Assembly: GCA_027923505.1 (NCBI GenBank)
Contig: BROI01000024.1
Coordinates: 248,001-312,000 of the forward strand
DNA length: 64,000 bases
Origin: Mayamaea pseudoterrestris
Lineage: Eukaryota
Direction of reading: 5' to 3'
Of this stretch, positions 2,305 to 15,100 are shown in pieces (position 1 is the first letter of the stretch; every line of letters begins with the position of its first letter). The notes beneath the pieces are model-generated. The model had not been told where the DNA came from, did not search any database, and worked only from the letters and a program-made list of their open reading frames with translations. A program made the translations under genes and the position numbers.

Positions 2305-5300
2305 TCAAACGTTAAAGCGCACTCTCTTGCAGCCACGATGTTCCAGGTCCTCTATGGGGAGCATGTACTTGGGGCGTTTGCGGTGTATGCTCTCCTCTAC
2401 TTTTAACTTTTTGTTCTCCTTTGCAGTCGTCGTGACATCGGGCGTTTGCGCAAAATAATGGTATTCCGTGAGCAGGCGAAGTGAGCGGAGCAAAAAGTGG
2501 GTCTTGGAAAGTTGATCAGACTTTAGATCACTCGATTCTCCTCTCGCCACGCTCTTTCCTATGCCTACTTTATCCTCATTCATCAGCGCGTCCAGATTTT
2601 CCATAGTCTCCTCCACCGTTTCTTTGGCAATAATCGTTTCCACCTCCAGTCGGCCCATCGCGCCCATCCGCCAAGCTCTCGCAACCGCCTGATCCATCAA
2701 TGACTTATCGAGAATTTCTTCGAGGAAGAATACATGTGTAACAAACGACAGGTCTAAACCCTCACTTCCGTCTTTGCCCAGCAGCATGCAAAAGCAATCG
2801 CTGTTGGAAGCAAATTTAGTGAGCTCTGCCTGACGAGATTTGCCCCAAAACTCAGCGATGCAGGCGCTTCCAAACTCCCAGATAAGACGAGTCCCGATGA
2901 CATTTAGCACCTCACGAAATTGTGAAAAGATAATGGCCTTCAGCGGTCTATGATCGCCCACTATTGCCAAGTTAAATTCCGAACTACCGGAAGCACACCA
3001 TTGGCGCCTTTGTGAGCAGAGTTTTCTAAGCTTTTGCGTGAGATAGAATGCTTTGGACTCGTCCGGTGGACAGGGAATTCCTACGCGGTAACAAGTTGCA
3101 CATCGACTTTTCTCATTTGTGAGCACGCAAGCATTGTGCTCATGCAAGCACAAAACGCAACGTCCGTCAACTGCGAATATATCGAATTCGCATTTGTGAT
3201 CACCGTACTTTCTCGTTCGTCGACGCTCTAGTAAAGGTCGAACAATGGGCTCTAGGTTGATCGTATCTGGTTGCGTTCCAATCGAAATCTCTGACGCTGA
3301 AGGCTTCCTTTGCGGAATATCCTTTTTTTCGTCGACAACAGTACTCCAAGTAAAATCAAAGCCGGGCTGAAGCAACTGGAAGTCGTTTACGTCAAAGTGG
3401 GCGTCACAAAGCGCGCACTCGCTACAACCATCCATACACTCGGGGCAAGCGAGTCCCCCACAACAAGGGAGGAGAAGGAGCATTGCCAGCCGCAAACCAC
3501 AGCACTCACAAGGAAAAATCTGTTCCTCTTGCGCTCCTATCATGTATTGACGAATCTTGTGAATGCGAGACTCGCATATTTCATGTTTTTCAAGAAGTTC
3601 TATAGTCTCCAGAAAGAAGGCAGGTTCAAGCTTAAGCATCACTCGAGAAAATCCTATACATGATCGACGAATATTGTCAAGTGCTTTCTTCGCAGATTTT
3701 CGCTGCGACCGATGCAACAGCGAATCCTGTAGGCCCATCGGACTTCCGCCCATGCCGCAGACAAGCAAATTCGTCTGCACTGCACAAGCGATCGAGTTGT
3801 ACGCCGCCGCTTCCTCAGGGCTCATGGTAACAATCTTCCTATGATATAATGGTGAAGGAAGCTCCACAATGTCCAGCTTCGTATGCCGCTTCGTGAGTAC
3901 TTTCAAAAGATTCCGCAATCTAAAAAATGACGCTAAAGATTCTTCGTTCCACGACGAGGCAATGTTGGATTTCCATATCCTTTCGCCGTCAAGACGAGAA
4001 GAGAAAAACTCGTGTTGTAAAAAGGTCACGAGATGCTTAATCTGAGTAAATTGTGATTTCGTTTGCTTGGTAGGGGTACCGGTCATGGCCCATCGTCGTT
4101 GAGCAGATATCCACGACGCGAACTGAATTGTATTGCTGTTTGGCTGCTGTGCCATCGAATGGCCTTCATCTACCACCAAGCGCAGCCAATGAATTTTAAG
4201 AAGAGGACATGCCTCGTTTGCCTCATCGTCGAGATGATATGATGAGCTGCCATTACGATTCCGCTCAAGTTCCTTTCTTAGAGAGCCATTGCTCCATTCA
4301 TTTTTACACCGCATATTTGACGTAATGACGACTTGAAATTTCGCTAAGAAAGCAGGAGAAGGAAGCTTTCGCGTCGTGGCCATGTCCAAAAAGATAAAGG
4401 GTGAATGCGTCTTGTCATGATCAATCTTCGACAGGGCCATCTCAACCGTCATCTCGCCCTTGGAGGCATGTTGATGGAAGACAAACGTTAATGGACGTCT
4501 TCCAGGTGCAACGACATAACTCGCGTCAACGTGTCGCTCGATCTGTGTTTTCCAGTGATTTAACAATACAGAAGGAACAATTATTATCGTCGCCGAAGTA
4601 GAAAGTAACGCCTCCTCCAATTCTCGCAGTTTTTGCTTTTCGATTATGGCAGTCACTCGTGAATTCGGTCGAGCGGATGCATTAGCGAATGACTTTTTCG
4701 CGGAGCAAAGCTGGCTTGTCTTTAACTCGTAGACAAGCGCTTCGAATACAGATAGGCAATCTTCCCGCTCATCATCGTGGTGGTCAAAAATCGGAAAACG
4801 CTTAATTATGTTGCGAACATTGTCTTCAAACAATCTGAAGCTCGTGCTATATTCATTGTTGTCAACCCGACCCATGATCCGTTTGCACTCAGAGACAAAC
4901 TCACGCCCACTTGCGGGAAGACGACGAAGTAAGTCAAGTACAAGACGGCGCAGCATCGGTCGTTGAAAATCAGTGCTCACATGATCCGAATAATACGTCT
5001 CAAAGATTCTAGCATCATCATTGTTTAAACCTCTTGGCTCGTCATCCACGATCGAGATCTCTTTCATTGGCGCCACCGCAGGCATTGTGGACATGCCGCT
5101 TGTTTGCAATATTAAACTTAGCAGCGTAATTGTCTTGCCCAAGCCGGGGTCATCGCAAAGCAATCCACCACGCGCCACCTTGCGTGGCAATTGTTTCATA
5201 AGTTCAGTGTCCTGGACTTCTCGGCCAGTCCGTTGATCAATCCGAATGCACGATGTAATAGATGAATGACAATCGTTGTCTATGCAACGAGGCCTCAGTA

Positions 5301-6384
5301 ACGTCGTCCACCCGCCCGTCACGGAGCGGTGCAAATCGCCCGGCAACGTTGGATCCAAGCAATCTCGTTCCATCAAGCCTTTGCACTCGCGTTGTCGCAT
5401 CCACGTGAGCGAAGCAACTTGATGCTGATACAAGCGCAGCTTCAAACCCGGCACCACGGCGCGGAGCGTGTCACGCATGCTGGTGCAAGTGTTGCGTAAC
5501 GAGTGTAGCGATTTGGCGCGCAAAAAGGGAGCCAGCGAGTCGACTAGAATCTCCTTGGGAAGCGCGATGAGCAGCGACGTTGAGAGTTTCGCTTTGTATA
5601 ACCTTTTCATGGACGCTAGGTCGCATTCATTTGACCCAGGAATGCGTCGATAGAGCTCCGAAAACGTCATTTTGCTGGGAAAGAGCGGAGGGTTGTCGCG
5701 TCGGTGCTCCAAAGTAGTTTTGTCGTTCTGTTGCAGGCGCTCCATGGCTCCATCCAGCTGAGTCCAATCATTCTGTACCAAGGACAGCAACAGTTGAAGT
5801 GCCGGGGACAATGGTTTGTTAAATTTGGGTGCATTGACTGCTAATAAAAAGCGTGAACCGGGCGTTCCTTGCTGCAGGTAGGGAAAGGACAGCGTCACGA
5901 CAAGAGAGGCGCTCAATCTTGGATTTTTCTTGTCAAGCTCTGAGCAGTGAAGCAGCATTTCTGCTCGTTCAATAGTAACATGGTCTTGACAAGCCTTGAC
6001 CAAGCCCAGCAGTAGATACATGTCACTACGTGCCTCTTGACATTCGTGACAAATAACGTCGGAAGCCTTGCCAGAGAACGAAATTATGCTGCTCAGGTCC
6101 ATGTTTGATCGATTCTTCCCTTTGTCATTGTCGTGCCCATTCCTAGGTTTCTCAAACGTCCAATTCAATTGACACGAGGTGCAGCCCTGCGAGCAATTGT
6201 TGTCGAGTAACGATTTGTCGTTGCGAGCAAAATCAATCGGCAGCCATGTCCTCATCGGCAAGCTTTCAACATCGCCAGCAAAACCGTCCAAGTCGAGCTG
6301 TGACTCCTCAATGAGAAGGTATGCTATTTCCATATTGTTTGGTGCGGTCCTCATGGCACTTTGTTTTGCAAAGGTGGAATGCAT
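2305..6384 (-). CDS. SNF2-family (RAD5/16-like) helicase with F-box-like segment and RING finger
   Basis: GGLLCDDPGLGKT (Walker A), VVDEGH, MTGTP, RING-like CECC...CC...CPEC...CALC, QAVARAWRMG (motif VI); F-box-like LLIALPKEILVDSLAPFL. First in-frame ATG at 6384 (the track start at 6501 is GTG). Confidence 0.85.
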   Translation of the reverse strand: MHSTFAKQSAMRTAPNNMEIAYLLIEESQLDLDGFAGDVESLPMRTWLPIDFARNDKSLLDNNCSQGCTSCQLNWTFEKPRNGHDNDKGKNRSNMDLSSIISFSGKASDVICHECQEARSDMYLLLGLVKACQDHVTIERAEMLLHCSELDKKNPRLSASLVVTLSFPYLQQGTPGSRFLLAVNAPKFNKPLSPALQLLLSLVQNDWTQLDGAMERLQQNDKTTLEHRRDNPPLFPSKMTFSELYRRIPGSNECDLASMKRLYKAKLSTSLLIALPKEILVDSLAPFLRAKSLHSLRNTCTSMRDTLRAVVPGLKLRLYQHQVASLTWMRQRECKGLMERDCLDPTLPGDLHRSVTGGWTTLLRPRCIDNDCHSSITSCIRIDQRTGREVQDTELMKQLPRKVARGGLLCDDPGLGKTITLLSLILQTSGMSTMPAVAPMKEISIVDDEPRGLNNDDARIFETYYSDHVSTDFQRPMLRRLVLDLLRRLPASGREFVSECKRIMGRVDNNEYSTSFRLFEDNVRNIIKRFPIFDHHDDEREDCLSVFEALVYELKTSQLCSAKKSFANASARPNSRVTAIIEKQKLRELEEALLSTSATIIIVPSVLLNHWKTQIERHVDASYVVAPGRRPLTFVFHQHASKGEMTVEMALSKIDHDKTHSPFIFLDMATTRKLPSPAFLAKFQVVITSNMRCKNEWSNGSLRKELERNRNGSSSYHLDDEANEACPLLKIHWLRLVVDEGHSMAQQPNSNTIQFASWISAQRRWAMTGTPTKQTKSQFTQIKHLVTFLQHEFFSSRLDGERIWKSNIASSWNEESLASFFRLRNLLKVLTKRHTKLDIVELPSPLYHRKIVTMSPEEAAAYNSIACAVQTNLLVCGMGGSPMGLQDSLLHRSQRKSAKKALDNIRRSCIGFSRVMLKLEPAFFLETIELLEKHEICESRIHKIRQYMIGAQEEQIFPCECCGLRLAMLLLLPCCGGLACPECMDGCSECALCDAHFDVNDFQLLQPGFDFTWSTVVDEKKDIPQRKPSASEISIGTQPDTINLEPIVRPLLERRRTRKYGDHKCEFDIFAVDGRCVLCLHEHNACVLTNEKSRCATCYRVGIPCPPDESKAFYLTQKLRKLCSQRRQWCASGSSEFNLAIVGDHRPLKAIIFSQFREVLNVIGTRLIWEFGSACIAEFWGKSRQAELTKFASNSDCFCMLLGKDGSEGLDLSFVTHVFFLEEILDKSLMDQAVARAWRMGAMGRLEVETIIAKETVEETMENLDALMNEDKVGIGKSVARGESSDLKSDQLSKTHFLLRSLRLLTEYHYFAQTPDVTTTAKENKKLKVEESIHRKRPKYMLPIEDLEHRGCKRVRFNV

Positions 6385-6559
6385 GCTAGCAAAGAATTTT
6401 GACGGCGCGTGAGCGATCCATCGCGTCACGCTTGACGTCTCACCGTGAATGAGCCGACGTCGGCGTGGTCCTGGATCAGAACCTGGACACGCGCAAGGCA
6501 CACTGAGCGTCCGTTTCTACTACAAGCTGGTTTCGCGTTACGCCGGCCAAGAGTAGGGC

Positions 6560-6744
6560 GAACACCGATTAATCTCTATCCAACACCAGATTCTTCCGTT
6601 TCCTACACAAAGACGGCGATTGCTAAAACTTGGGAAGCTAGGGATAGCTACCCAAGCACCCCCACTGGACAAGCAGAGCAGAGCTAGCTAGATCCGCTCG
6701 GAGAGCAGATCCCTTGCCAGCTGCAGTGAGCTGCTGCTATACCA
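6560..6744 (-). repeat. Repeat B2 (185 bp), 3' terminal copy
   Basis: gaacaccgattaatc...gctgctatacca, identical by eye to 7091-7275. Confidence 0.95.
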
Positions 6745-6762
6745 GGGATGGGCTGGGTGGGT

Positions 6763-7090
6763 ACTTTAATCTATATTACTTGACTCGAGTCGGGATGATC
6801 GAGGCAACAGAGACTGAAGAATGAGGACGATGGCAAGTGCTTGCAATCGATTGCAACTCGGGGAGACTCCGGCAGCTGGTCTTGGGGCTTACTTAGACAG
6901 GGTCACGTGCCCGAATCTTCACGACCAGATCCTTCGGAGTCGCCTAGGAATGACTTCGCGGGGAATCAATTCTCCGAACTTGAAGGGCGGGACGCCAGAT
7001 GATGACGAAATTTGCCGAAGAACGGCTGCGTCATCATGACTAGGCTGTAGCCAATCACCACTTTCCATCCGACACTTCTGAATCCCAAAT
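6763..7090 (-). repeat. Repeat A2 (328 bp), internal copy
   Basis: actttaatctatatt...gaatcccaaat, identical by eye to 14156-14483; the same 72-aa spurious ORF is called in both copies. Confidence 0.95.
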
Positions 7091-7275
7091 GAACACCGAT
7101 TAATCTCTATCCAACACCAGATTCTTCCGTTTCCTACACAAAGACGGCGATTGCTAAAACTTGGGAAGCTAGGGATAGCTACCCAAGCACCCCCACTGGA
7201 CAAGCAGAGCAGAGCTAGCTAGATCCGCTCGGAGAGCAGATCCCTTGCCAGCTGCAGTGAGCTGCTGCTATACCA
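7091..7275 (-). repeat. Repeat B1 (185 bp), directly abutting A2
   Basis: Duplicate of 6560-6744; the B1|A2 junction mimics the joined ends (circle junction) of the element. Confidence 0.95.
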
Positions 7276-7308
7276 TCTTGGAGAGAGCAAGGGATCGCGC
7301 GTTAGGAG

Positions 7309-8487
7309 CTAGACGCCCCAGACGCGACCAAGGTCTAAGGAGGAGTCGTGGCTGATGCCCGTTAATGGAATGGTGGTGGTGACAAGCGCGGGCGTTGGAG
7401 AAGGATTGGTGTTGTTGATGGCTTGAATGCGTTGAGCGGTAATGGTGTTGAACTTGGTGATGGATAGCATCCGTTTAGCTACATCGACGGAGAACATGTC
7501 GACTTGCTTGCGTATGTATTCCATAAATGCCTCGCTGCGCCAGCGTCCCTGCAGCTGAATGGTCCTTAAAGGGACGCCAGACATGTACATTGCCATTGCT
7601 GCAGTTGCGCGGATAGAATGGAGACCAACTGTCTCGACAGAGAGGCCGATGGAGGAAGGATTCTGACCGGCAATGAAATGACGTAGGAATTCGCGCCCCA
7701 TTTTTGTATTGCAAGTGGCGAGTTTGCCTTCTTCGTCTTCGTAACAGTAGAAGTTGGCGTCCTCTTTAACCAGCTTGCGAGCCACTAAACGCCTCGTATT
7801 GCGCACGAGGCGAGCGGCAAAGATAACAGGACAGAAACGCCAATGGCCAGAGCGATGGAGCGTGACGCCTTCATCCTTAGCTTCGTTCTTTTGCATGCCA
7901 AAGATGAGCGTCACTGAATCGGCAAGATGGAGGAATAAACTGTCGTGAGGCACAAGCGTGCCATCCTTCCAAAACTTGGTATCAATAGCTCGGAGCGGGA
8001 GAGTGCGACGTGAGACTTTGTCGCCCCGGTAAATGGCCAAGTACTCACAAGAGCGAAGGGCGAAGAAGGATGCTAAACCAACGAGCAATTGAAAATGCCG
8101 GAAGGCAAAGGACCGCGATTTTTGCGTTGTTAGCTGCATCATGAGGTCCATTGGGAGCGCCTGTTGATGGTTTGTCGACGGATCCATGTTGGCGTAGCCT
8201 CGATAAAGGCGAGCTAAGATGGGTGGCGTGTCGCCTCGTTCGTTTTTGCGAGGATCGGGGTAACCCGCGGACGTAAAGGCCTTAGCCACACCATCGACGG
8301 TGGAACGGACAGATCCAACAACCAATGCATCCTTGCCTTTTGTTGGCTTGGAGTACTCGCCTTGGCGAACGGAATGGATGAAGGCGAGGAAGAGATTGAG
8401 GCGGTCGCCGTAGGAGCAGCGGTCCATGAAGGGATCGTCTGCGAAACCAGCTCGCTCAGCGAACTGCATCCAACGGTCCCAAGCCAT
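7309..8487 (-). CDS. Tyrosine recombinase of the retroelement
   Basis: Catalytic R (ALRSCEY), K (MQKN), H-x-x-R (HSIRATAA), W (QGRWRS), Y (MEYIR). Overlaps the 3' end of pol in another frame. Confidence 0.93.
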   Translation of the reverse strand: MAWDRWMQFAERAGFADDPFMDRCSYGDRLNLFLAFIHSVRQGEYSKPTKGKDALVVGSVRSTVDGVAKAFTSAGYPDPRKNERGDTPPILARLYRGYANMDPSTNHQQALPMDLMMQLTTQKSRSFAFRHFQLLVGLASFFALRSCEYLAIYRGDKVSRRTLPLRAIDTKFWKDGTLVPHDSLFLHLADSVTLIFGMQKNEAKDEGVTLHRSGHWRFCPVIFAARLVRNTRRLVARKLVKEDANFYCYEDEEGKLATCNTKMGREFLRHFIAGQNPSSIGLSVETVGLHSIRATAAMAMYMSGVPLRTIQLQGRWRSEAFMEYIRKQVDMFSVDVAKRMLSITKFNTITAQRIQAINNTNPSPTPALVTTTIPLTGISHDSSLDLGRVWGV

Positions 8488-11400
8488 ATCTTCTCGAACG
8501 TGAGAGGCCCTTGTGACTCCAACAGACTCGGATTGAGCTGCAGCAAGGAGGAGATAGCGGACGTAATCTTGCTGGGCAGAGGTCGCATCGCGAAGGATGC
8601 CGGAACCTGATGCGCCAAAGAAGAAGAAAGGATTAGATTGGTTAGATCAGCATCAGAGCGAGAGAGCTCGCGTGAAATAAGATCAGGCACCACGTTATCC
8701 AGTCCCATCCGCCATTGCGAGTAACAGCAGATGCCAAACTGCGCGCAAATCTCGGCGAGCAGGCGAGCGAGCAGAAGCATCTGCGGAGCAGCCGTTTCGT
8801 TGGAGAAGTTAGACCTTCGCAGCCATCCTGCTGCAGTCGTATTGTCGCCAAGAGCGAGTACGCAGTCTCCTTTGCGTAAGTGTCCTTCTGTCGCGGCAAG
8901 CCAGATGCCGACGAGTGGACCGACAAACTCGAGGACGTTTATATGATGAGCAGGCGCCCCAGGCGGAACAGCGAGTCGCCAGCCGTTGCCGATCGTCATA
9001 TCATGTCCACCAACTTGATGAAGACAAGCATCAGTCGGTATAACAAAGTCAGGAACGCGAGGCACGAGCAGATTGATATCCACGCCAGCACGAGCGGTGG
9101 CGAGTAGACGCAAGCAATGCTCCAAGTCGTGGCGTTCTGCGCGAGTCAATCGAGTGCGCTTATTGTATTTGCCATCTGCTGCCTCTGCGCGAGTCTTTGC
9201 TGAGTGAATACGACCAAGGCGAGGCCTCATTTCAAGTACAACAACAGAAACGTGGACGAGGCGACCAAAAAGCGTGTCGAGCGTGGCTGCCGTGACTAAA
9301 TAGCCTTGGCGATCGAGAAGCTCCTGGATATCCTCCGAGTAGATGCGATACTTGTCGGCAGGCAGGCTAATAAGGAGCTTGCGAGTATCAATCTCCCAGC
9401 CAAGGACCACTTGTATTTCAATCAATCCTCCTTCGGCAATAAGCTTGGAGACTGCAATTAAAGCGTTGCGCGGGAGAGGTTCGTCTCCACGCAATGGGCG
9501 ACCCATCAGGTCAAGCATCAATGGAACGGCATGAGCGCCTCGAAGGATTGCGTCGTCGCTAGTATGGACAATGAGACCAAGATGGTCGTCCAGGAAGACA
9601 TCAAAGAAGGGTAGACCATCCACTGGAATCAATTCTTTTACCGTTGTTGGGCGAGCAATGGCAAACGGCGTGGAAGAATCCGGATACACGACCGGCCTGG
9701 CGTTTATGTGAGCGACAAAGCGAGATTGTAGCGCGGCGGGATCCCAATGAAGGTCTCTAACCAAGTGGTTTGCCGCGTCTGTAACCGTCTCTGATAGATC
9801 ACTAAAGATGGCAGGGCATGGAGACCCTCCAAACGTCATCCGGAGCGCCAAAAGCGCGAGCGTGGAGTCAGTCGTGATCCCTTTTGTGGTGGTTGCCGCT
9901 TGGACGAGTGTTTCAAGGCCAAAATGACAGTTCTTGTAAGCCGATTTCCAATCATACTTGGGTAGATAGATAGGAAGCGTATTGTAGTCAGTCCGTGTAG
10001 CAATGAGTCTGCTTAGAAGGCGTTGCAAGGCAAATCCGTAGAAGACGGGTGGTAACTCGTCCTCCCTAACGCGATCGTTAACGGAGGTGCCGGCGTGCCG
10101 TTGACAGAACGTTTGATCGTGCGTAATTCGACCAGCCTCTTTGCGGGAGCCATCTGCTTGTAGCTTTAGTTGTTTAACGTAGCCAAAAGGAGCAACAGAT
10201 ACATTGGGCAGCAGATGAAGAGCTTCTAGTGGAAGCGGAAGGTGCCAGCCCTTTGCGGTCTCTTCTTGAAGCGTTTCCAAAACGGCGACTCGTTCCTTCG
10301 TTGCCGACTTGTGGTTGCCGTACTCAAGGATTGCCTCCATCTCCTCCTTGCGGAGCTCCTCGGTTAAAGGAGTCAAAGGAAAGCAGGCGCCTTGAGTGAG
10401 TGTGCTGCGAACGCGCTGCCATGTAGGATGGCCAGCAAAGATGGGATCGAGCAACTCAATGGGGCGGAAATTTGAGCCCGGGCAGGTGGGCAGATTTTTG
10501 TTGGAGAACAAGAGGCTAGCTAAATCCATGTTGTTGGCTTGAAGGACTGCGAGGTTAAGCTGGGCAGCTTCGGCAGTCACAGTAAAGCGAAAAGGAGAAG
10601 GCAGCATTGGTGGAGGAGACCATAAAAGAGCTTGCTTGAAATTGCTCATCCAAGAAGACTCGTCTTGAGGCCATGGAGCGAGCGGGTAGTCAAGGCCAGG
10701 ATCCATAACCTCGAGAGGAATAGCTAACTCGGGGACGGGCGTGATGTGTGCCGGAACGGTGATGGACAACGGGATGGACTCGTCGGAGTGGTTATCCCCG
10801 TCGTGATTGTTTATGTTGATAGAAACGTCGTCGTCGTTGTTGTTGTTGTTGTTGTTGTTGTTGATGGCAACAGAACGAGAGGACGAGATGGATGGCGCTG
10901 GCCGAGACTGGTCGGTTGATGGCGTAACAGCACTAGGAGTGCGATGGATCTGCTGGAATGATTCCCAGTAGATGGAAGGTGGCTTGGCGGATGGAATGGG
11001 CGTGGTGATGGCGGATGGGATGGATGGGGAAGGAACTGGAGAAGGCGGCAACTTACTGATATCTTTGTCGATCCGTTCAGCACTCAGATGAGTTGACATT
11101 GGATGCTGATGCTTTTGGCGCTTTGGAGCGCGAGCATGAGGGCGAGTAGCATCGAGGATGCGTTTGTCGGGCGGCGCCGACGCTGGTAACAGCTGGTCCA
11201 ATAGAGGCGACTCGCCTGGTGGACGTAATGGCGTAATGGCGGACTCAAAGAGCGCGGCGGAAGCCGATGCTGTAATAGTCTTTGCCACGCGGGGATCCCG
11301 AGTATCGAGCGAGGAAGACGACGGCAATTCCACTGACTCGAGGGTACGAGACCCCGTCATGTCAATTGGAGCGGCCGCCGATCCTCTAACGCTCGATCCT

Positions 11401-11912
11401 CGCTGGGATGAATTAGAAGAGGAAGAACTCTGTCTAATAGAGGCAACAGCCTCGATGCCGTCCTTTGGACGACTGTCCTGGACTAGAGGCAATGCCCCGC
11501 GTGGCGCTGGTAGGAGAGTGTCGGAGGCGAAGGTAACTCGGGCCGCCACCGGCGTGTTGGGTTTAGTAGTGAAGGACTTAATGATAGATGCCTTGGGTAT
11601 AGTAAGCTCAAGTAGTGATGCCTGTTGACGTCGTGTAGGTCGAGGCGAGCTGATGTGTCTTGACGCCAGAGGCCTAGCTAAGTAGCGTTGGCTTGGGGAT
11701 GTCGTACTCAATAACGGGTAGCGTCGCAGTGTGGAACGTAGTTCGCGAGCAACTTGGAGCGATTTGCGTCGGCCGATTGGACTTGTTGTACTTGCTAAAG
11801 AAGCATGTAGATAAGGGCTGGAACCAGACTCTACTATGTTATCCTCTGCGTCTTTAGTAGTTTGTAAGGCTCCTCCATCGTGGCTTTCCGCCAGCCACGT
11901 GGAGGAGAGTCC
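8214..11912 (-). CDS. Pol: reverse transcriptase + RNase H (frame open from just after the gag TGA)
   Basis: RT motifs KYDWKSAY, LRMTFGGSPCP, FLDD, LGWEIDT; RNase H motifs TDAC, HINVLE, GDNT, DNVVPDLISR. Long low-complexity N-terminal linker. No stop codon between 11912 and the track start at 11711 (hand-translated). Confidence 0.9.
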   Translation of the reverse strand, partial: GLSSTWLAESHDGGALQTTKDAEDNIVESGSSPYLHASLASTTSPIGRRKSLQVARELRSTLRRYPLLSTTSPSQRYLARPLASRHISSPRPTRRQQASLLELTIPKASIIKSFTTKPNTPVAARVTFASDTLLPAPRGALPLVQDSRPKDGIEAVASIRQSSSSSNSSQRGSSVRGSAAAPIDMTGSRTLESVELPSSSSLDTRDPRVAKTITASASAALFESAITPLRPPGESPLLDQLLPASAPPDKRILDATRPHARAPKRQKHQHPMSTHLSAERIDKDISKLPPSPVPSPSIPSAITTPIPSAKPPSIYWESFQQIHRTPSAVTPSTDQSRPAPSISSSRSVAINNNNNNNNNDDDVSININNHDGDNHSDESIPLSITVPAHITPVPELAIPLEVMDPGLDYPLAPWPQDESSWMSNFKQALLWSPPPMLPSPFRFTVTAEAAQLNLAVLQANNMDLASLLFSNKNLPTCPGSNFRPIELLDPIFAGHPTWQRVRSTLTQGACFPLTPLTEELRKEEMEAILEYGNHKSATKERVAVLETLQEETAKGWHLPLPLEALHLLPNVSVAPFGYVKQLKLQADGSRKEAGRITHDQTFCQRHAGTSVNDRVREDELPPVFYGFALQRLLSRLIATRTDYNTLPIYLPKYDWKSAYKNCHFGLETLVQAATTTKGITTDSTLALLALRMTFGGSPCPAIFSDLSETVTDAANHLVRDLHWDPAALQSRFVAHINARPVVYPDSSTPFAIARPTTVKELIPVDGLPFFDVFLDDHLGLIVHTSDDAILRGAHAVPLMLDLMGRPLRGDEPLPRNALIAVSKLIAEGGLIEIQVVLGWEIDTRKLLISLPADKYRIYSEDIQELLDRQGYLVTAATLDTLFGRLVHVSVVVLEMRPRLGRIHSAKTRAEAADGKYNKRTRLTRAERHDLEHCLRLLATARAGVDINLLVPRVPDFVIPTDACLHQVGGHDMTIGNGWRLAVPPGAPAHHINVLEFVGPLVGIWLAATEGHLRKGDCVLALGDNTTAAGWLRRSNFSNETAAPQMLLLARLLAEICAQFGICCYSQWRMGLDNVVPDLISRELSRSDADLTNLILSSSLAHQVPASFAMRPLPSKITSAISSLLQLNPSLLESQGPLTFEKIWLGTVGCSSLSELVSQTIPSWTAAPTATASISSSPSSIPFAKASTPSQQKARMHWLLDLSVPPSMVWLRPLRPRVTPILAKTNEATRHPS
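11870..11907 (-). promoter_or_regulatory. Stem-loop 3' of the gag stop; putative readthrough stimulator
   Basis: Sense strand CTCCTCCA-CGTGGCT [GGCGGAA] AGCCACG-A-TGGAGGAG: 15-bp stem with one bulge, beginning after a 5-nt spacer 3' of the TGA. Confidence 0.65.
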
Positions 11913-14138
11913 TCACGGCGCGTCGTTGTGAGCTTGCTTTTGCGCCTTGACGAACGCTTTAAAGAGGAGGGCATCCGACTGAGAGAGCGGTTCATGCGCA
12001 TGCGGGCAGGCTTTCCAAGTACACTTGCCCGAGCAGAAGAACTTGAGGCAGGGCTGGAGGCGATTGCCGTTCACTGTAACCTTGGGGCAGTTGCCCATTT
12101 CGCCCGAGGGAAAGACTACCTTGATGGGCTGGCGAATCTTGCACTCCGCGTCATACGCTTGGTTTACCTTTGCCTTGCTCCCATTGTTGGTCTTGGTGAG
12201 TTTGGGAGGCGAGTCTTGGCCGTTGTGTCCGCCACCATTGTTGTTGGAGCCGTTGCCGCCGCCGCCGCCGCCGAAACGCTTCTGGTTGGCGCTATTAGCG
12301 AAGGAGGCCGCCATTACCGATGGAAGGAACTTAATGAGGCAAGTAGGGATGCAGGAGTCAGCGACTCGATCGCAATTAAGTTCTTCAATGAGGAAGGCAA
12401 ACTTGTCCAAGTACGTGGTGGTGAACGCGCCCGTGTCGTTGAGGCAGCGGAGCATGTGGTTGTTGATGAGGACGTCCACGTTGTTACTCAAATGAGCAAG
12501 GAAATCAGGCTTGTTTGTAACGTTCTGTTTGATGCGTTTAGTGTGGCCTTTAAGATCCTTTGCCAACTGGCGGAGGGTGGCGCCGAGGTAGGTCTTCTGG
12601 TTGGCCGTCGGGGCGATGCCAGCGAGGATATCAAAGACGTTGGCGAATTCCTCAATACCAGTCATCAATTCCTCTGGGGAATGAGGAAAGCTTGTTTTAA
12701 TCTCGCTGTGTTTCTTCATGGTAGACTCGCGTACATCGTTGCCATCAAGTTGCATGGATTCCTCGAGGAAGGCGGACGGGTTGATGGACTCGGTAGACGC
12801 CGTGAATCCCATGAGGGAGACGAAGAGATACTGGGAGCGATCCTTGGTAGGCAAGTCGCCGCGATGAATGAGTTGCGCCATCGAGGAAGGAATAATGAAC
12901 TGCGACGAGTACTCGTCGAGTGCCGCTTGGAGCAACTGTTGCGCGTTATCCTTCTTGGACGACAGGAGCGTTGTATGGAACGTGGATGGCTCGGTAGGGA
13001 TTTCCTTGGCTTCAGTCGTCGCCAAGCGAAGGAAAAGGCGTTGTTTGGAAGGCAAGACCTTGGACCAGCTGCCGACCGAGTCGCTGGATCCTTTCTGCTT
13101 GGAGAGGGTGGCAATCAAAGTGCGGTCCTCGTCGTTCTGACGCTCGAGCGTGGCGACTCGGGCTTCCTGAGCTTCATTTGCGACTTTGGCCTGGCGACGA
13201 AGCTCATCCAACATGGAGTTGAAGACGGCGAGGCTTTCCGCCTTGGAGGAATCCTTGTTGGTGTTGTTGCCGTCCTCGCTTCCTTCTTCATCTTTATTTT
13301 CGTCGTCGTCCTTTGAGGTGTCGTCGCTGCGTGTTTTCAATGCCGCTCCCGATGGCCAGTTGCGTTGCAGACGATGCTCGGTGACCTCGTTAAAGTCGGC
13401 GATTACTGGAGGCGGGATCTCATCAAGCTTCTCAATGACTGGAAGAGGAGGAAGGCGACCAATGAATGCTTTGTAGGCGGCGGAAGGAGTGGTCGTGTTG
13501 GCTTGTTTCATCAACCACCACAAGATGCGGGCAGGGAGGAAAGCGGCCGTCTTGATGTCGTCGCCGTGGATGTCTTTATAGTTTGACAAGCACTCAATGA
13601 AAGACAAGAAAGAGGTTTGCCAGTTCGCGTTAGAACCAAACTGCTCAAGGACGGCAAAAGCAAAAGGCGGCAACGGGATGCTTGCCGAGAAGGAGAGGGG
13701 ATTGGTTTCGTCGACTGCCATCCCCAAGTAATCGTCGGCGCCAAAGTTGTTCATGGCGTCATCGTCCAGAAGCATGCCAAAGGAAGGCGTGAAGAAAGCC
13801 TCTCCTGGATCAGTAATCACTTGAAGACTCGCGGGCAAGAGACGAACGACGTTCGCCCGCGCCGAGGGACCGTTGAAAGCAAATACGACAGGATCGTCGC
13901 CGTCTTCCAACTCGTAGACGATGGGATGATGGATCATGAGGAAATCAAGCTTGGTAGCCTTCAATCCAAGGACCAAGTAAAGGTCCTCCGGGCCGTGATG
14001 GAGCGCGTTGTGGCGGTCGGAAAGAGAGACACTTGAAAAAGCCGCGCTGTTGTTTGCCAAGTTGCCGTAGCTCGAGCGTGAGCGCTTGGCATCAGAGTAG
14101 AAGCGAAACCATGAGGTTGCAGAGGTGGAGAGCATCAT
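11913..14138 (-). CDS. Gag-like ORF1 of the retroelement with C-terminal CCCH zinc finger
   Basis: ATG lies 18 nt downstream of A1. Contains a coiled coil, a Gly-rich tract and C-x8-C-x4-C-x3-H (CLKFFCSGKCTWKACPHAH). Confidence 0.85.
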   Translation of the reverse strand: MMLSTSATSWFRFYSDAKRSRSSYGNLANNSAAFSSVSLSDRHNALHHGPEDLYLVLGLKATKLDFLMIHHPIVYELEDGDDPVVFAFNGPSARANVVRLLPASLQVITDPGEAFFTPSFGMLLDDDAMNNFGADDYLGMAVDETNPLSFSASIPLPPFAFAVLEQFGSNANWQTSFLSFIECLSNYKDIHGDDIKTAAFLPARILWWLMKQANTTTPSAAYKAFIGRLPPLPVIEKLDEIPPPVIADFNEVTEHRLQRNWPSGAALKTRSDDTSKDDDENKDEEGSEDGNNTNKDSSKAESLAVFNSMLDELRRQAKVANEAQEARVATLERQNDEDRTLIATLSKQKGSSDSVGSWSKVLPSKQRLFLRLATTEAKEIPTEPSTFHTTLLSSKKDNAQQLLQAALDEYSSQFIIPSSMAQLIHRGDLPTKDRSQYLFVSLMGFTASTESINPSAFLEESMQLDGNDVRESTMKKHSEIKTSFPHSPEELMTGIEEFANVFDILAGIAPTANQKTYLGATLRQLAKDLKGHTKRIKQNVTNKPDFLAHLSNNVDVLINNHMLRCLNDTGAFTTTYLDKFAFLIEELNCDRVADSCIPTCLIKFLPSVMAASFANSANQKRFGGGGGGNGSNNNGGGHNGQDSPPKLTKTNNGSKAKVNQAYDAECKIRQPIKVVFPSGEMGNCPKVTVNGNRLQPCLKFFCSGKCTWKACPHAHEPLSQSDALLFKAFVKAQKQAHNDAP

Positions 14139-14155
14139 GATGACTTGGAGGAAAG

Positions 14156-14483
14156 ACTTTAATCTATATTACTTGACTCGAGTCGGGATGATCGAGGCAA
14201 CAGAGACTGAAGAATGAGGACGATGGCAAGTGCTTGCAATCGATTGCAACTCGGGGAGACTCCGGCAGCTGGTCTTGGGGCTTACTTAGACAGGGTCACG
14301 TGCCCGAATCTTCACGACCAGATCCTTCGGAGTCGCCTAGGAATGACTTCGCGGGGAATCAATTCTCCGAACTTGAAGGGCGGGACGCCAGATGATGACG
14401 AAATTTGCCGAAGAACGGCTGCGTCATCATGACTAGGCTGTAGCCAATCACCACTTTCCATCCGACACTTCTGAATCCCAAAT
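14156..14483 (-). repeat. Repeat A1 (328 bp), 5' terminal copy
   Basis: Duplicate of 6763-7090. Confidence 0.95.
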
Positions 14484-15100
14484 CTACCAAAAACAGCTGC
14501 GCCGAATTTGGGGGCATACCGGTACTCACGTTCTCCCGTGTAAAAGCACTCGATAATTCGACGAGCACCCGTACAATGCCTCCATGCGGGACCATTATAC
14601 AAGCGTCACTCTCTATTATTGTTCTAAAAGCTCACTCATTATATAAAGATTAGTTTTGTCAAATAATAGAGAGTGCGACTCTAAAAACGAATGCGCGAAT
14701 GACCATGCAGTGGCTGATTGCCATCAAACAGCGCGGCAATGTGGCGCTCGCAAGGCCAAGGACTCGTTCGAAACCGGCGCAAAGGCACTTTTAGACAGAA
14801 GTGATCATGAAAAGATCATTGACGTGCAGTTCGACAGTCTTGGGCCATAATTTGTGGCATTGCATTCCATATGACGCCGGCAAGGAAGCGCGCAAATGAA
14901 TCCTTCACATTGCAGCGGTTCAAACATACTCAATCAAGCTCCGATTGACTTATTTTTAGCGTCATATGCACTGGATGATTGTATTGTATAAGCCTATGTA
15001 GTCTATATTGCTCCGTTACCTATATACAGCATAAACGGCGGGATCATGACCAGCGTGTCATGGTGATGGTCCGTTTTCGTCTGTCTGGCCTTGGTGCGTC

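Follow-up and report, generated by a model that had tools for sequence, protein, structure and literature searches.

A candidate stop-codon readthrough site between gag and pol of a Ngaro-type tyrosine-recombinase retrotransposon in the diatom Mayamaea pseudoterrestris

A 64,000-nucleotide (nt) stretch of the genome of Mayamaea pseudoterrestris (GenBank assembly GCA_027923505.1, contig BROI01000024.1, positions 248,001 to 312,000; hereafter, the window) contains a tyrosine-recombinase (YR) retrotransposon in which gag and pol lie in one reading frame, interrupted by a single UGA stop codon with a stable hairpin shortly downstream. The question raised by this locus is how such an element makes its reverse transcriptase (RT). 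Of all retrotransposon orders, that of the YR retroelements is the least understood, and the way in which they set the ratio of Gag to Pol is essentially undescribed. We consider programmed readthrough of the UGA, yielding a minor Gag-Pol fusion, to be the best explanation of the arrangement, with a probability of roughly 0.65; we infer its occurrence, its efficiency, and the stimulatory role of the hairpin from sequence and predicted structure.

In the mechanism that we propose, the full-length RNA of the element would be translated into Gag, ending at the UGA at 11915-11913. The very stable hairpin that begins 5 nt downstream would stimulate decoding of the UGA by a near-cognate tRNA in a minority of translating ribosomes, and these would proceed through a disordered linker of ~430 residues into the RT and predicted RNase H domains to give a Gag-Pol protein of 1,974 amino acids (aa). 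The recombinase would be translated from a third, overlapping open reading frame (ORF).

One frame, one UGA, and a hairpin at the gag-pol junction

Read on the reverse strand, the ATG at 14138 opens a frame that continues to 8214, a span of 1,975 codons in which the TGA at 11915-11913 is the sole stop, dividing a gag of 741 aa from a further 1,232 aa of pol (1,974 aa for the read-through product). An initial annotation of this DNA had placed gag and pol in frame across this TGA, with 67 stop-free codons between it and a TTG at 11711 and with the first pol-frame ATG ~185 codons beyond the stop; translation bears out all three statements, and the ATG is indeed the 185th codon past the TGA (index 184). 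From the TGA to the RT domain, the pol frame runs through 430 codons without a stop, compared with 11 and 16 stops in its two alternatives, and the probability of 191 open codons arising by chance is 0.0015-0.0019. The pol frame is open exactly as far up as the gag stop, and no further. In-frame ATGs of the linker are limited to codons 184, 271, 402, and 421, and 36 ATG triplets precede the first of these on the element RNA. Because no in-frame ATG occurs for 184 codons and so many ATG triplets lie upstream, independent initiation of pol by scanning is unlikely. The linker sequence differs among relatives, yet it is open in all of them, and the same overall arrangement (two long ORFs separated by one in-frame stop, the second ORF having no nearby start) is found both in the window and at five loci of the sister clade described below. 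The window linker also holds a run of nine Asn.

The initial annotation had further described a 15-bp GC-rich hairpin following a 5-nt spacer, and on folding this structure lies far beyond chance expectation. The 38-nt hairpin (11907-11870), in which one A is bulged and the loop reads GGCGGAA, reaches -27.1 kcal/mol, compared with -10.5 +/- 2.8 for shuffled sequences (0 of 2000 shuffles were as stable), and the 71-nt stretch gives z = -5.48 (0 of 200 shuffles as stable). When all 50-nt segments of the 7,924-nt element are scanned, the most stable is the junction segment (-30.8, against a mean of -9.25 and a standard deviation of 4.14), whose first base is the one that follows the T of the TGA; the second best (-26.4) is located in the B repeats. 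In the minimum-energy fold the stop codon is itself drawn into the structure, as UGAGG pairs with CCUUA and extends the helix to 11915-11865. The pseudoknot that had been suggested between the hairpin loop and downstream sequence fared differently: the pairing TTCCAGCC is present as sequence, but the best duplex amounts to -8.4 kcal/mol and is equalled or bettered by 29% of 2000 shuffles, a chance level at which we rejected it.

The position of the stop is conserved at the end of gag. A search with the gag protein against 1.84 billion representatives returned 12 proteins at E <= 0.001, including the window gag itself and P0002; Pfam returned no match for the window gag or for those of its relatives. 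In an alignment of the gag with eight homologues that are 20-34% identical, the only invariant columns are P685, C697, C706, C711, and H715, the last four making up a finger of pattern C-x8-C-x4-C-x3-H near the C-terminus. Six of the eight homologues end within a few residues of the window gag, past this CCCH finger, and the other two run longer (P0011 by about a dozen residues, P0013 by more than 100). The ORF1 proteins of the metagenomic clade described below terminate at the equivalent position, and comparison of the gag with ORF1 of that clade by hhalign gives a probability of 97.3% (E 1.8e-11), the 346 aligned columns extending as far as the finger.

The stop is also present in other sequencing data. 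Four of the seven sequencing runs listed (X2, X3, X4, and X6) were compared, all as contigs of DNA. A contig of X2 covering 11566-12242 leaves the TGA and the hairpin unchanged, its single difference lying at 12204, and a contig of X6 covering 11814-11964 matches with zero differences; diverged copies (80-95%) in the four runs span only the RT, RNase H, and YR regions, not gag or the junction. With its position kept in homologues and the TGA kept in the contigs of X2 and X6, the in-frame stop stands as the native terminus of gag, as the initial annotation had taken it to be, rather than a one-off nonsense mutation, and it is ancestral.

Close relatives of this gag are few in the protein collections. 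A protein search with gag at near lengths returned only the window gag and P0002, and because a search with read-through residues 450-1170 against proteins of 1,085-3,455 aa gave no match, no fused close relative is seen. P0002, from the same species, matches the first ~267-324 residues of the gag (window 13338-14138, reverse strand) at 87-94% identity, and its C-terminal half is unrelated; it could belong to another family of elements whose gag is modular, or result from a chimeric gene model. A resemblance between the N-terminal HDDAPL of P0006 and the HNDAP that precedes the window stop, a possible homology, was not aligned by MAFFT and was set aside.

A second in-frame clade and other arrangements among metagenomic relatives

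Scanning metagenomes with the pol alignment yielded 67 loci at 27-44% identity, of which 32 had enough upstream sequence to be analysed by script; all 67 were screened for a stop located after a gag finger. Scans of viral and genome contig collections with the same alignment confirmed nothing, and P0006 (whose pol is 65% identical, on a 7,426-nt contig) is absent from the 67 metagenome loci.

At five loci (L008, L012, L019, L020, and L021), ORF1 and ORF2 abut in frame at a TGA in every case. Where complete, ORF1 has 676-775 codons; the RT match follows the stop after 164-302 open codons, the first ATG is found 78-301 codons past the stop or not at all, and ORF3 overlaps the end of pol. The gag proteins of this clade are mutually 65-68% identical, and their 164-nt junction alignment has a mean column identity of 66%. 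The clade is well supported (SH-aLRT 100) on a quick maximum-likelihood pol tree that carries long-branch warnings, and on the same tree the window groups with P0004, P0005, and P0006, then P0007. The first three are its closest relatives, P0004 and P0005 coming from the same species.

The junctions of the five loci share a conserved stem of their own, GGCUG-C-CGGA ... UCCG-N-CAGCC, of 9 bp, which begins 7 nt after the TGA and encloses a loop of ~37 nt. Across the alignment 44 of 45 cells are paired, with two compensatory double changes, a result reached by 17 of 500 shuffles; slid controls are all less than 47% paired. One compensatory change (L008, GC to AU) is synonymous on both sides, and the other (L012, CG to UA) combines a synonymous Leu change with a Ser to Asn replacement. 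Folded singly, L020 gives a strong signal (z -5.9), and L021 (-2.5) and L019 (-2.0) moderate ones. The readthrough interpretation has thereby gained a second, distant clade with the same in-frame TGA and a covarying 3' stem at 7-nt spacing, and has lost the pseudoknot with which it began.

Tandem repeats occur in the linker just past the TGA of two of these loci (L012:2471-2673, in 81-nt units, and L019:2354-2640, with ~174-nt spacing), and the linker seems to evolve by in-frame duplication. In L009 and L010, a TGA within GGTGAGT was considered as a gag stop and rejected, because in these degenerate copies it only bounds the pol frame upstream.

Several observations weigh against readthrough at the window UGA, or limit what the relatives contribute to it. 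A stable structure does lie near the stop, though at a spacing of 5 nt rather than the 7-8 nt of the cited viral cases. The base after the window UGA is G (UGA-GGA) and that in the sister clade is A or U (UGA-AGG in four loci and UGA-UGG in one), so that neither has the C of classical leaky contexts, and none of the leaky 3' contexts UGA-C, UGA-CGG, or CUAG is found in either. All junction copies in the sequencing runs are near-identical and therefore uninformative on covariation of the window hairpin. The sister clade is distant from the window clade on the pol tree, two of its members fold no better than shuffles (L012, z -0.66; L008, z -0.96), and with five loci the covariation support is modest. 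Because its stem is unrelated in sequence to the window hairpin, the sister clade supports the strategy, not the particular signal of the window.

Other relatives join gag and pol in different ways. L028 and L029 (which have identical RTs) and L038 encode gag and pol together in an ORF without interruption; of the 1,836 residues in L029, the last one in the gag profile is 755 and the first of the RT is 1014. Because gag-pol is a single ORF in this clade, a Gag-Pol fusion is a natural product in the lineage. These ORFs of ~1,800 codons (L029:328-5835, L028:3-5345, L038:3139-6414) have a finger variant, C-x7-C-x3-C-x5-H, and L038 seems to hold two elements in tandem. In a further clade, here called PDF, gag ends in PDF-stop, with the nucleotides GGAUUUU-stop-NNNGGGGCA. 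Four of its members (L002, L004, L006, and L041) have pol in the -1 frame with an overlap of 13-52 nt, and in five others (L001, L003, L024, L026, and L007) the gag stop and the pol frame do not adjoin. This clade varies in its stop (TAG, TGA, and TAA), compared with TGA in five of five in the in-frame clade, and we regard slippage of tRNA-Phe on U_UUU where gag stops, producing a -1 frameshift, as a candidate mechanism. The motif lies at L002:3521-3547, L004:549-575, L006:2461-2487, and L041:1671-1697, and is also present in L001, L003, L024, and L026.

A wider view, which we hold tentatively and would put at slightly under even odds, is that this diatom and protist lineage of Ngaro-type elements makes Pol solely as Gag-Pol and may have evolved the retroviral solutions at one site, the gag stop ~25 residues past the CCCH finger: UGA readthrough by two unrelated stimulators in two clades (a compact hairpin in the window element and a long-range stem in the metagenomic clade), a -1 shift at the GGAUUUU motif in a third, and plain fusion in a fourth.

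The element and other routes to Pol

The element occupies 14483 to 6560 on the reverse strand (7,924 nt) and is a Ngaro-type YR retrotransposon of the DIRS order. Its repeats follow the order A1-[ORFs]-B1A2B2, which according to the available text of Hackl et al. 2021 (PMC8547959) is the layout that defines Ngaro elements, and all split direct repeats are 100% identical in pairs (Table 1). The flanks (...GTAGGGC and CTACCAA...) share no common repeat, that is, there is no target-site duplication. ORF1, ORF2, and ORF3 are all intact; ORF3 overlaps pol by 274 nt in a different frame, and pol ends ~130 aa past the RNase H region. Pfam gives no matches to a methyltransferase, which would point to a DIRS1- or PAT-like element, or to a protease or a DDE integrase; this is weak evidence of their absence because Pfam also misses the RT of this element.

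Table 1. Coordinates, strand, and supporting evidence for the features of the element (positions in the window).
Feature	Position	Strand	Evidence
Whole Ngaro-type YR retrotransposon	6560..14483	-	repeat edges coincide with the empty-site joint 6559/14484
Split direct repeat A1, 328 nt	14156..14483	-	100% identical to A2
ORF1, gag-like, 741 aa + TGA	11913..14138	-	ORF list, translation, remote homologues P0009-P0018
CCCH zinc-finger motif of gag (C697, C706, C711, H715)	11994..12050	-	invariant alignment columns
In-frame UGA, gag stop and candidate readthrough site	11913..11915	-	sequence; unchanged in X2 and X6 contigs
Hairpin, 15 bp, one bulge, 7-nt loop; candidate readthrough stimulator	11870..11907	-	folding
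Rival candidate 99-nt in-frame intron, GCC/GTGAGG ... GGTTCCAG/CCC	11818..11916	-	GT/AG enumeration
Ser/Pro/Thr-rich linker, ~430 codons, gag stop to RT domain	10623..11912	-	open in pol frame
Reverse transcriptase + probable RNase H domains	8613..10622	-	AlphaFold model, Foldseek, invariant residues
ORF2 (pol) read from UGA, 1,232 codons + stop	8214..11912	-	translation
ORF3, tyrosine recombinase, 392 aa	7309..8487	-	motifs, weak Pfam match, model
Split direct repeat B1, 185 nt	7091..7275	-	100% identical to B2
Split direct repeat A2, 328 nt	6763..7090	-	100% identical to A1
Split direct repeat B2, 185 nt, beyond an 18-nt spacer after A2	6560..6744	-	100% identical to B1

Pfam returned no match for the pol of the window or its relatives, and PDB sequence searches with the pol profile and with the YR gave nothing meaningful; because sequence profiles fail to recognise these proteins, we relied on folds and motifs. 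The RT-RNase H region, modelled by AlphaFold with 15 aligned relatives (mean pLDDT 83.1, pTM 0.82), has as its top Foldseek matches the RTs of MMLV, CaMV, XMRV, and Ty3 (E 2.5e-10 to 1.6e-8, probability 1.00). The pair D345-D346 in an FLDD motif is invariant in the RT, and D531, E565, D593, and D647, invariant in 15 sequences, fit the DEDD tetrad of RNase H in a part of the model that is alpha/beta. ORF3 shows the R...HxxR...Y pattern of tyrosine recombinases in alignment (ALRSCE, HSIR, and GRW...EYIR), a weak match to Pfam Phage_integrase (PF00589, E 0.007, below its cut-off), and a model (pLDDT 64) that matches Cre recombinase (E 2.5e-5) and XerH. Split direct repeats, RT fold, and recombinase motifs together uphold the initial assignment to the YR retroelements (DIRS order, Ngaro type).

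One contig of X2 joins 6559 directly to 14484, skipping exactly 7,924 nt, and represents an empty-site allele. From this joint it follows that the element boundaries are right and that the insertion is polymorphic or heterozygous; given in addition the 100% identity of the repeats, the element is young and recently active. The pol protein is 100% identical, across the region searched, to a protein named in NCBI as from Mayamaea pseudoterrestris. The surroundings are gene-dense, and include an SNF2-family helicase ORF of 1,398 aa (window 2305-6501, reverse strand; Pfam SNF2-rel_dom, E 5.7e-37), with the element 58 nt downstream. Antisense to gag, a frame of 478 codons is open on the forward strand (window 11880-13316), probably because the element has a strong GC skew (0.15-0.22 over 10001-14000).

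The strongest rival to readthrough, though one that we consider unlikely, is that Gag-Pol is produced by splicing: an intron with a GTGAGG donor spanning the TGA (for example, the 99 nt of 11916-11818, ending ...GGTTCCAG) would be removed from some transcripts, with unspliced RNA serving as both Gag mRNA and RT template. It counts against readthrough that a donor, GCC/GTGAGG, sits exactly at the stop, with an in-frame acceptor 99 nt downstream. That acceptor, TTCCAG, consists of the same letters earlier taken as a pseudoknot arm; it is one of 13 in-frame AG acceptors at 45-531 nt that give an open fusion, the 99-nt candidate is of typical small-intron size, and merely 32 codons within it would need to be open by chance. 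In Ogre long terminal repeat (LTR) retrotransposons, an intron between gag-pro and RT is spliced. However, in-frame GT/AG pairs are common by chance (40 combinations for three donors), and four of the five sister-clade loci lack a GT at the stop and have no conserved donor nearby. Splicing would also place the strongest hairpin of the element inside an intron, where it has no evident role, though it is positioned like a readthrough stimulator. Reverse transcription of spliced RNA would sometimes produce copies without the intron, and among X2, X3, X4, and X6 no listed contig of the element has 11818-11916 removed; nor does any contig of these runs show a joint at the TGA, although these are contigs of DNA and silent on RNA.

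A second alternative, which appears improbable, is separate translation of pol, with initiation at the ATG 184 codons past the TGA or at some other start; the RNA would be subgenomic or internally initiated, and the shared frame would have no function. This is how the public annotation presents the locus: the NCBI model of pol, P0003, is a separate protein of 1,041 aa that starts at this internal ATG, and gag and pol are treated as unrelated hypothetical proteins, an annotation that readthrough would call into question. The initial annotation had stated that accounts of DIRS-order elements usually give them separate or overlapping ORFs, in agreement with the available text of two papers on YR retroelements (PMC3783388, PMC6681497), which mentions separate, overlapping, or frameshifted ORFs and no readthrough. 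Separate translation leaves unexplained, however, why the frame is open through all 184 codons above the ATG and just to the gag stop, and on full-length RNA the 36 upstream ATG triplets stand in its way. The sister clade has no conserved pol start, because its first ATG lies anywhere from 78 to 301 codons past the stop or is absent, and the fused clade translates the linker within Gag-Pol. P0003 is 7 residues shorter than the DNA predicts, owing to a modelled 21-nt intron (GTAAGT...CCAG, window 11036-11056, reverse strand) in the Pro/Ser-rich linker; spliceosomal introns are normally longer than this, and it is probably an artefact of annotation.

It is less probable still that the copy is defective or mobilised in trans, and that the relation between TGA and frame is an accident of its lineage without a role in expression. 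The window holds one copy only and its gag is nearly without close relatives in protein collections, but the gag end is conserved across homologues that are 20-34% identical, the TGA is kept in contigs of two other runs that cover the site, and identical repeats, an empty-site allele, and three intact ORFs speak for a functional element. Finally, diatoms possess selenoproteins, and an in-frame UGA is typical both of selenocysteine and of a UGA used as a sense codon in the host, but we give these readings almost no weight: no selenocysteine insertion sequence (SECIS) or other Rfam family matches either strand of 6400-14600 at E <= 1, the frame has exactly one TGA in 1,975 codons, and UGA is not a general sense codon, because TGA also ends ORF3 in L019 and L020.

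Comparison with known recoding systems

Readthrough of UGA thus remains our preferred account of the junction. The mechanism itself is known; its occurrence in the DIRS order, with RNA signals of its own, would be new, although priority is not certain. Searches of open-access full text turned up no paper that describes readthrough for DIRS, Ngaro, PAT, or VIPER elements. On the wider view given above, the DIRS order would have its first described recoding signals, independent in origin from those of retroviruses and LTR elements. If YR retroelements use stop-codon readthrough, with frameshifting in sister clades, the retrovirus-like logic of a minor Gag-Pol made by recoding would have emerged in a lineage that has no LTRs and no detected protease or integrase. 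Such signals would add compact, conserved eukaryotic stimulators of UGA readthrough from diatoms, with possible use as algal expression tools.

Among cellular retrotransposons, stop-codon readthrough occurs in the LTR elements Tca2 of Candida albicans and Skipper of Dictyostelium. These share with the window element an in-frame stop between gag and pol, and differ from it in being LTR elements with a protease and a DDE integrase. A close structural counterpart is provided by the Ngaro elements of Cafeteria burkhardae as described in the available text of PMC8547959: they likewise come from a stramenopile host and have the A1-[ORFs]-B1A2B2 layout, a gag-like ORF1, an RT-RNase H ORF2 (the RNase H being probable in the window), a YR ORF3, and no detected protease or DDE integrase. 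The window element differs in its single gag-pol frame with one UGA and a strong 3' hairpin, and its gag bears a C-terminal CCCH finger. The Cafeteria proteins match PF00078, PF17919, and PF00589, whereas in the window Pfam recognises neither the RT nor the RNase H, and the YR only below its threshold, and the same text describes no recoding for Cafeteria.

Among viruses, according to the available text of Firth et al. 2011 (PMC3159437), the readthrough signal of murine leukemia virus (MuLV) consists of an 8-nt spacer and a pseudoknot, and those of furo-, tobra-, and alphaviruses combine 7-8-nt spacers with extended stems that raise readthrough up to tenfold. The layout of the window junction resembles these signals and counts in favour of readthrough. 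The window element shares with MuLV an in-frame gag stop, a short spacer, a stable 3' RNA structure, and, as proposed here, a minor Gag-Pol that carries the RT. In MuLV the stop is UAG, the 8-nt spacer is purine-rich, and the structure is a compact pseudoknot; the window element instead has UGA, 5 nt, and a plain 15-bp hairpin whose loop shows no pseudoknot pairing above chance level, and it differs in class, having no LTRs and no detected protease or DDE integrase. The long-range stems of the second viral group likewise contrast with the compact hairpin of the window. It is the sister clade (L008, L012, L019, L020, and L021) that fits this extended-stem type closely: as in the alpha-, furo-, tobra-, and pecluvirus signals of PMC3159437, UGA is followed by a 7-8-nt spacer and a long-range stem with a large loop and compensatory changes (here a 7-nt spacer, a 9-bp stem, and a loop of ~37 nt). 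The viral cases usually have UGA-C or UGA-CGG, and the diatom and metagenomic elements, known from sequence alone, have A, U, or G as the next base.

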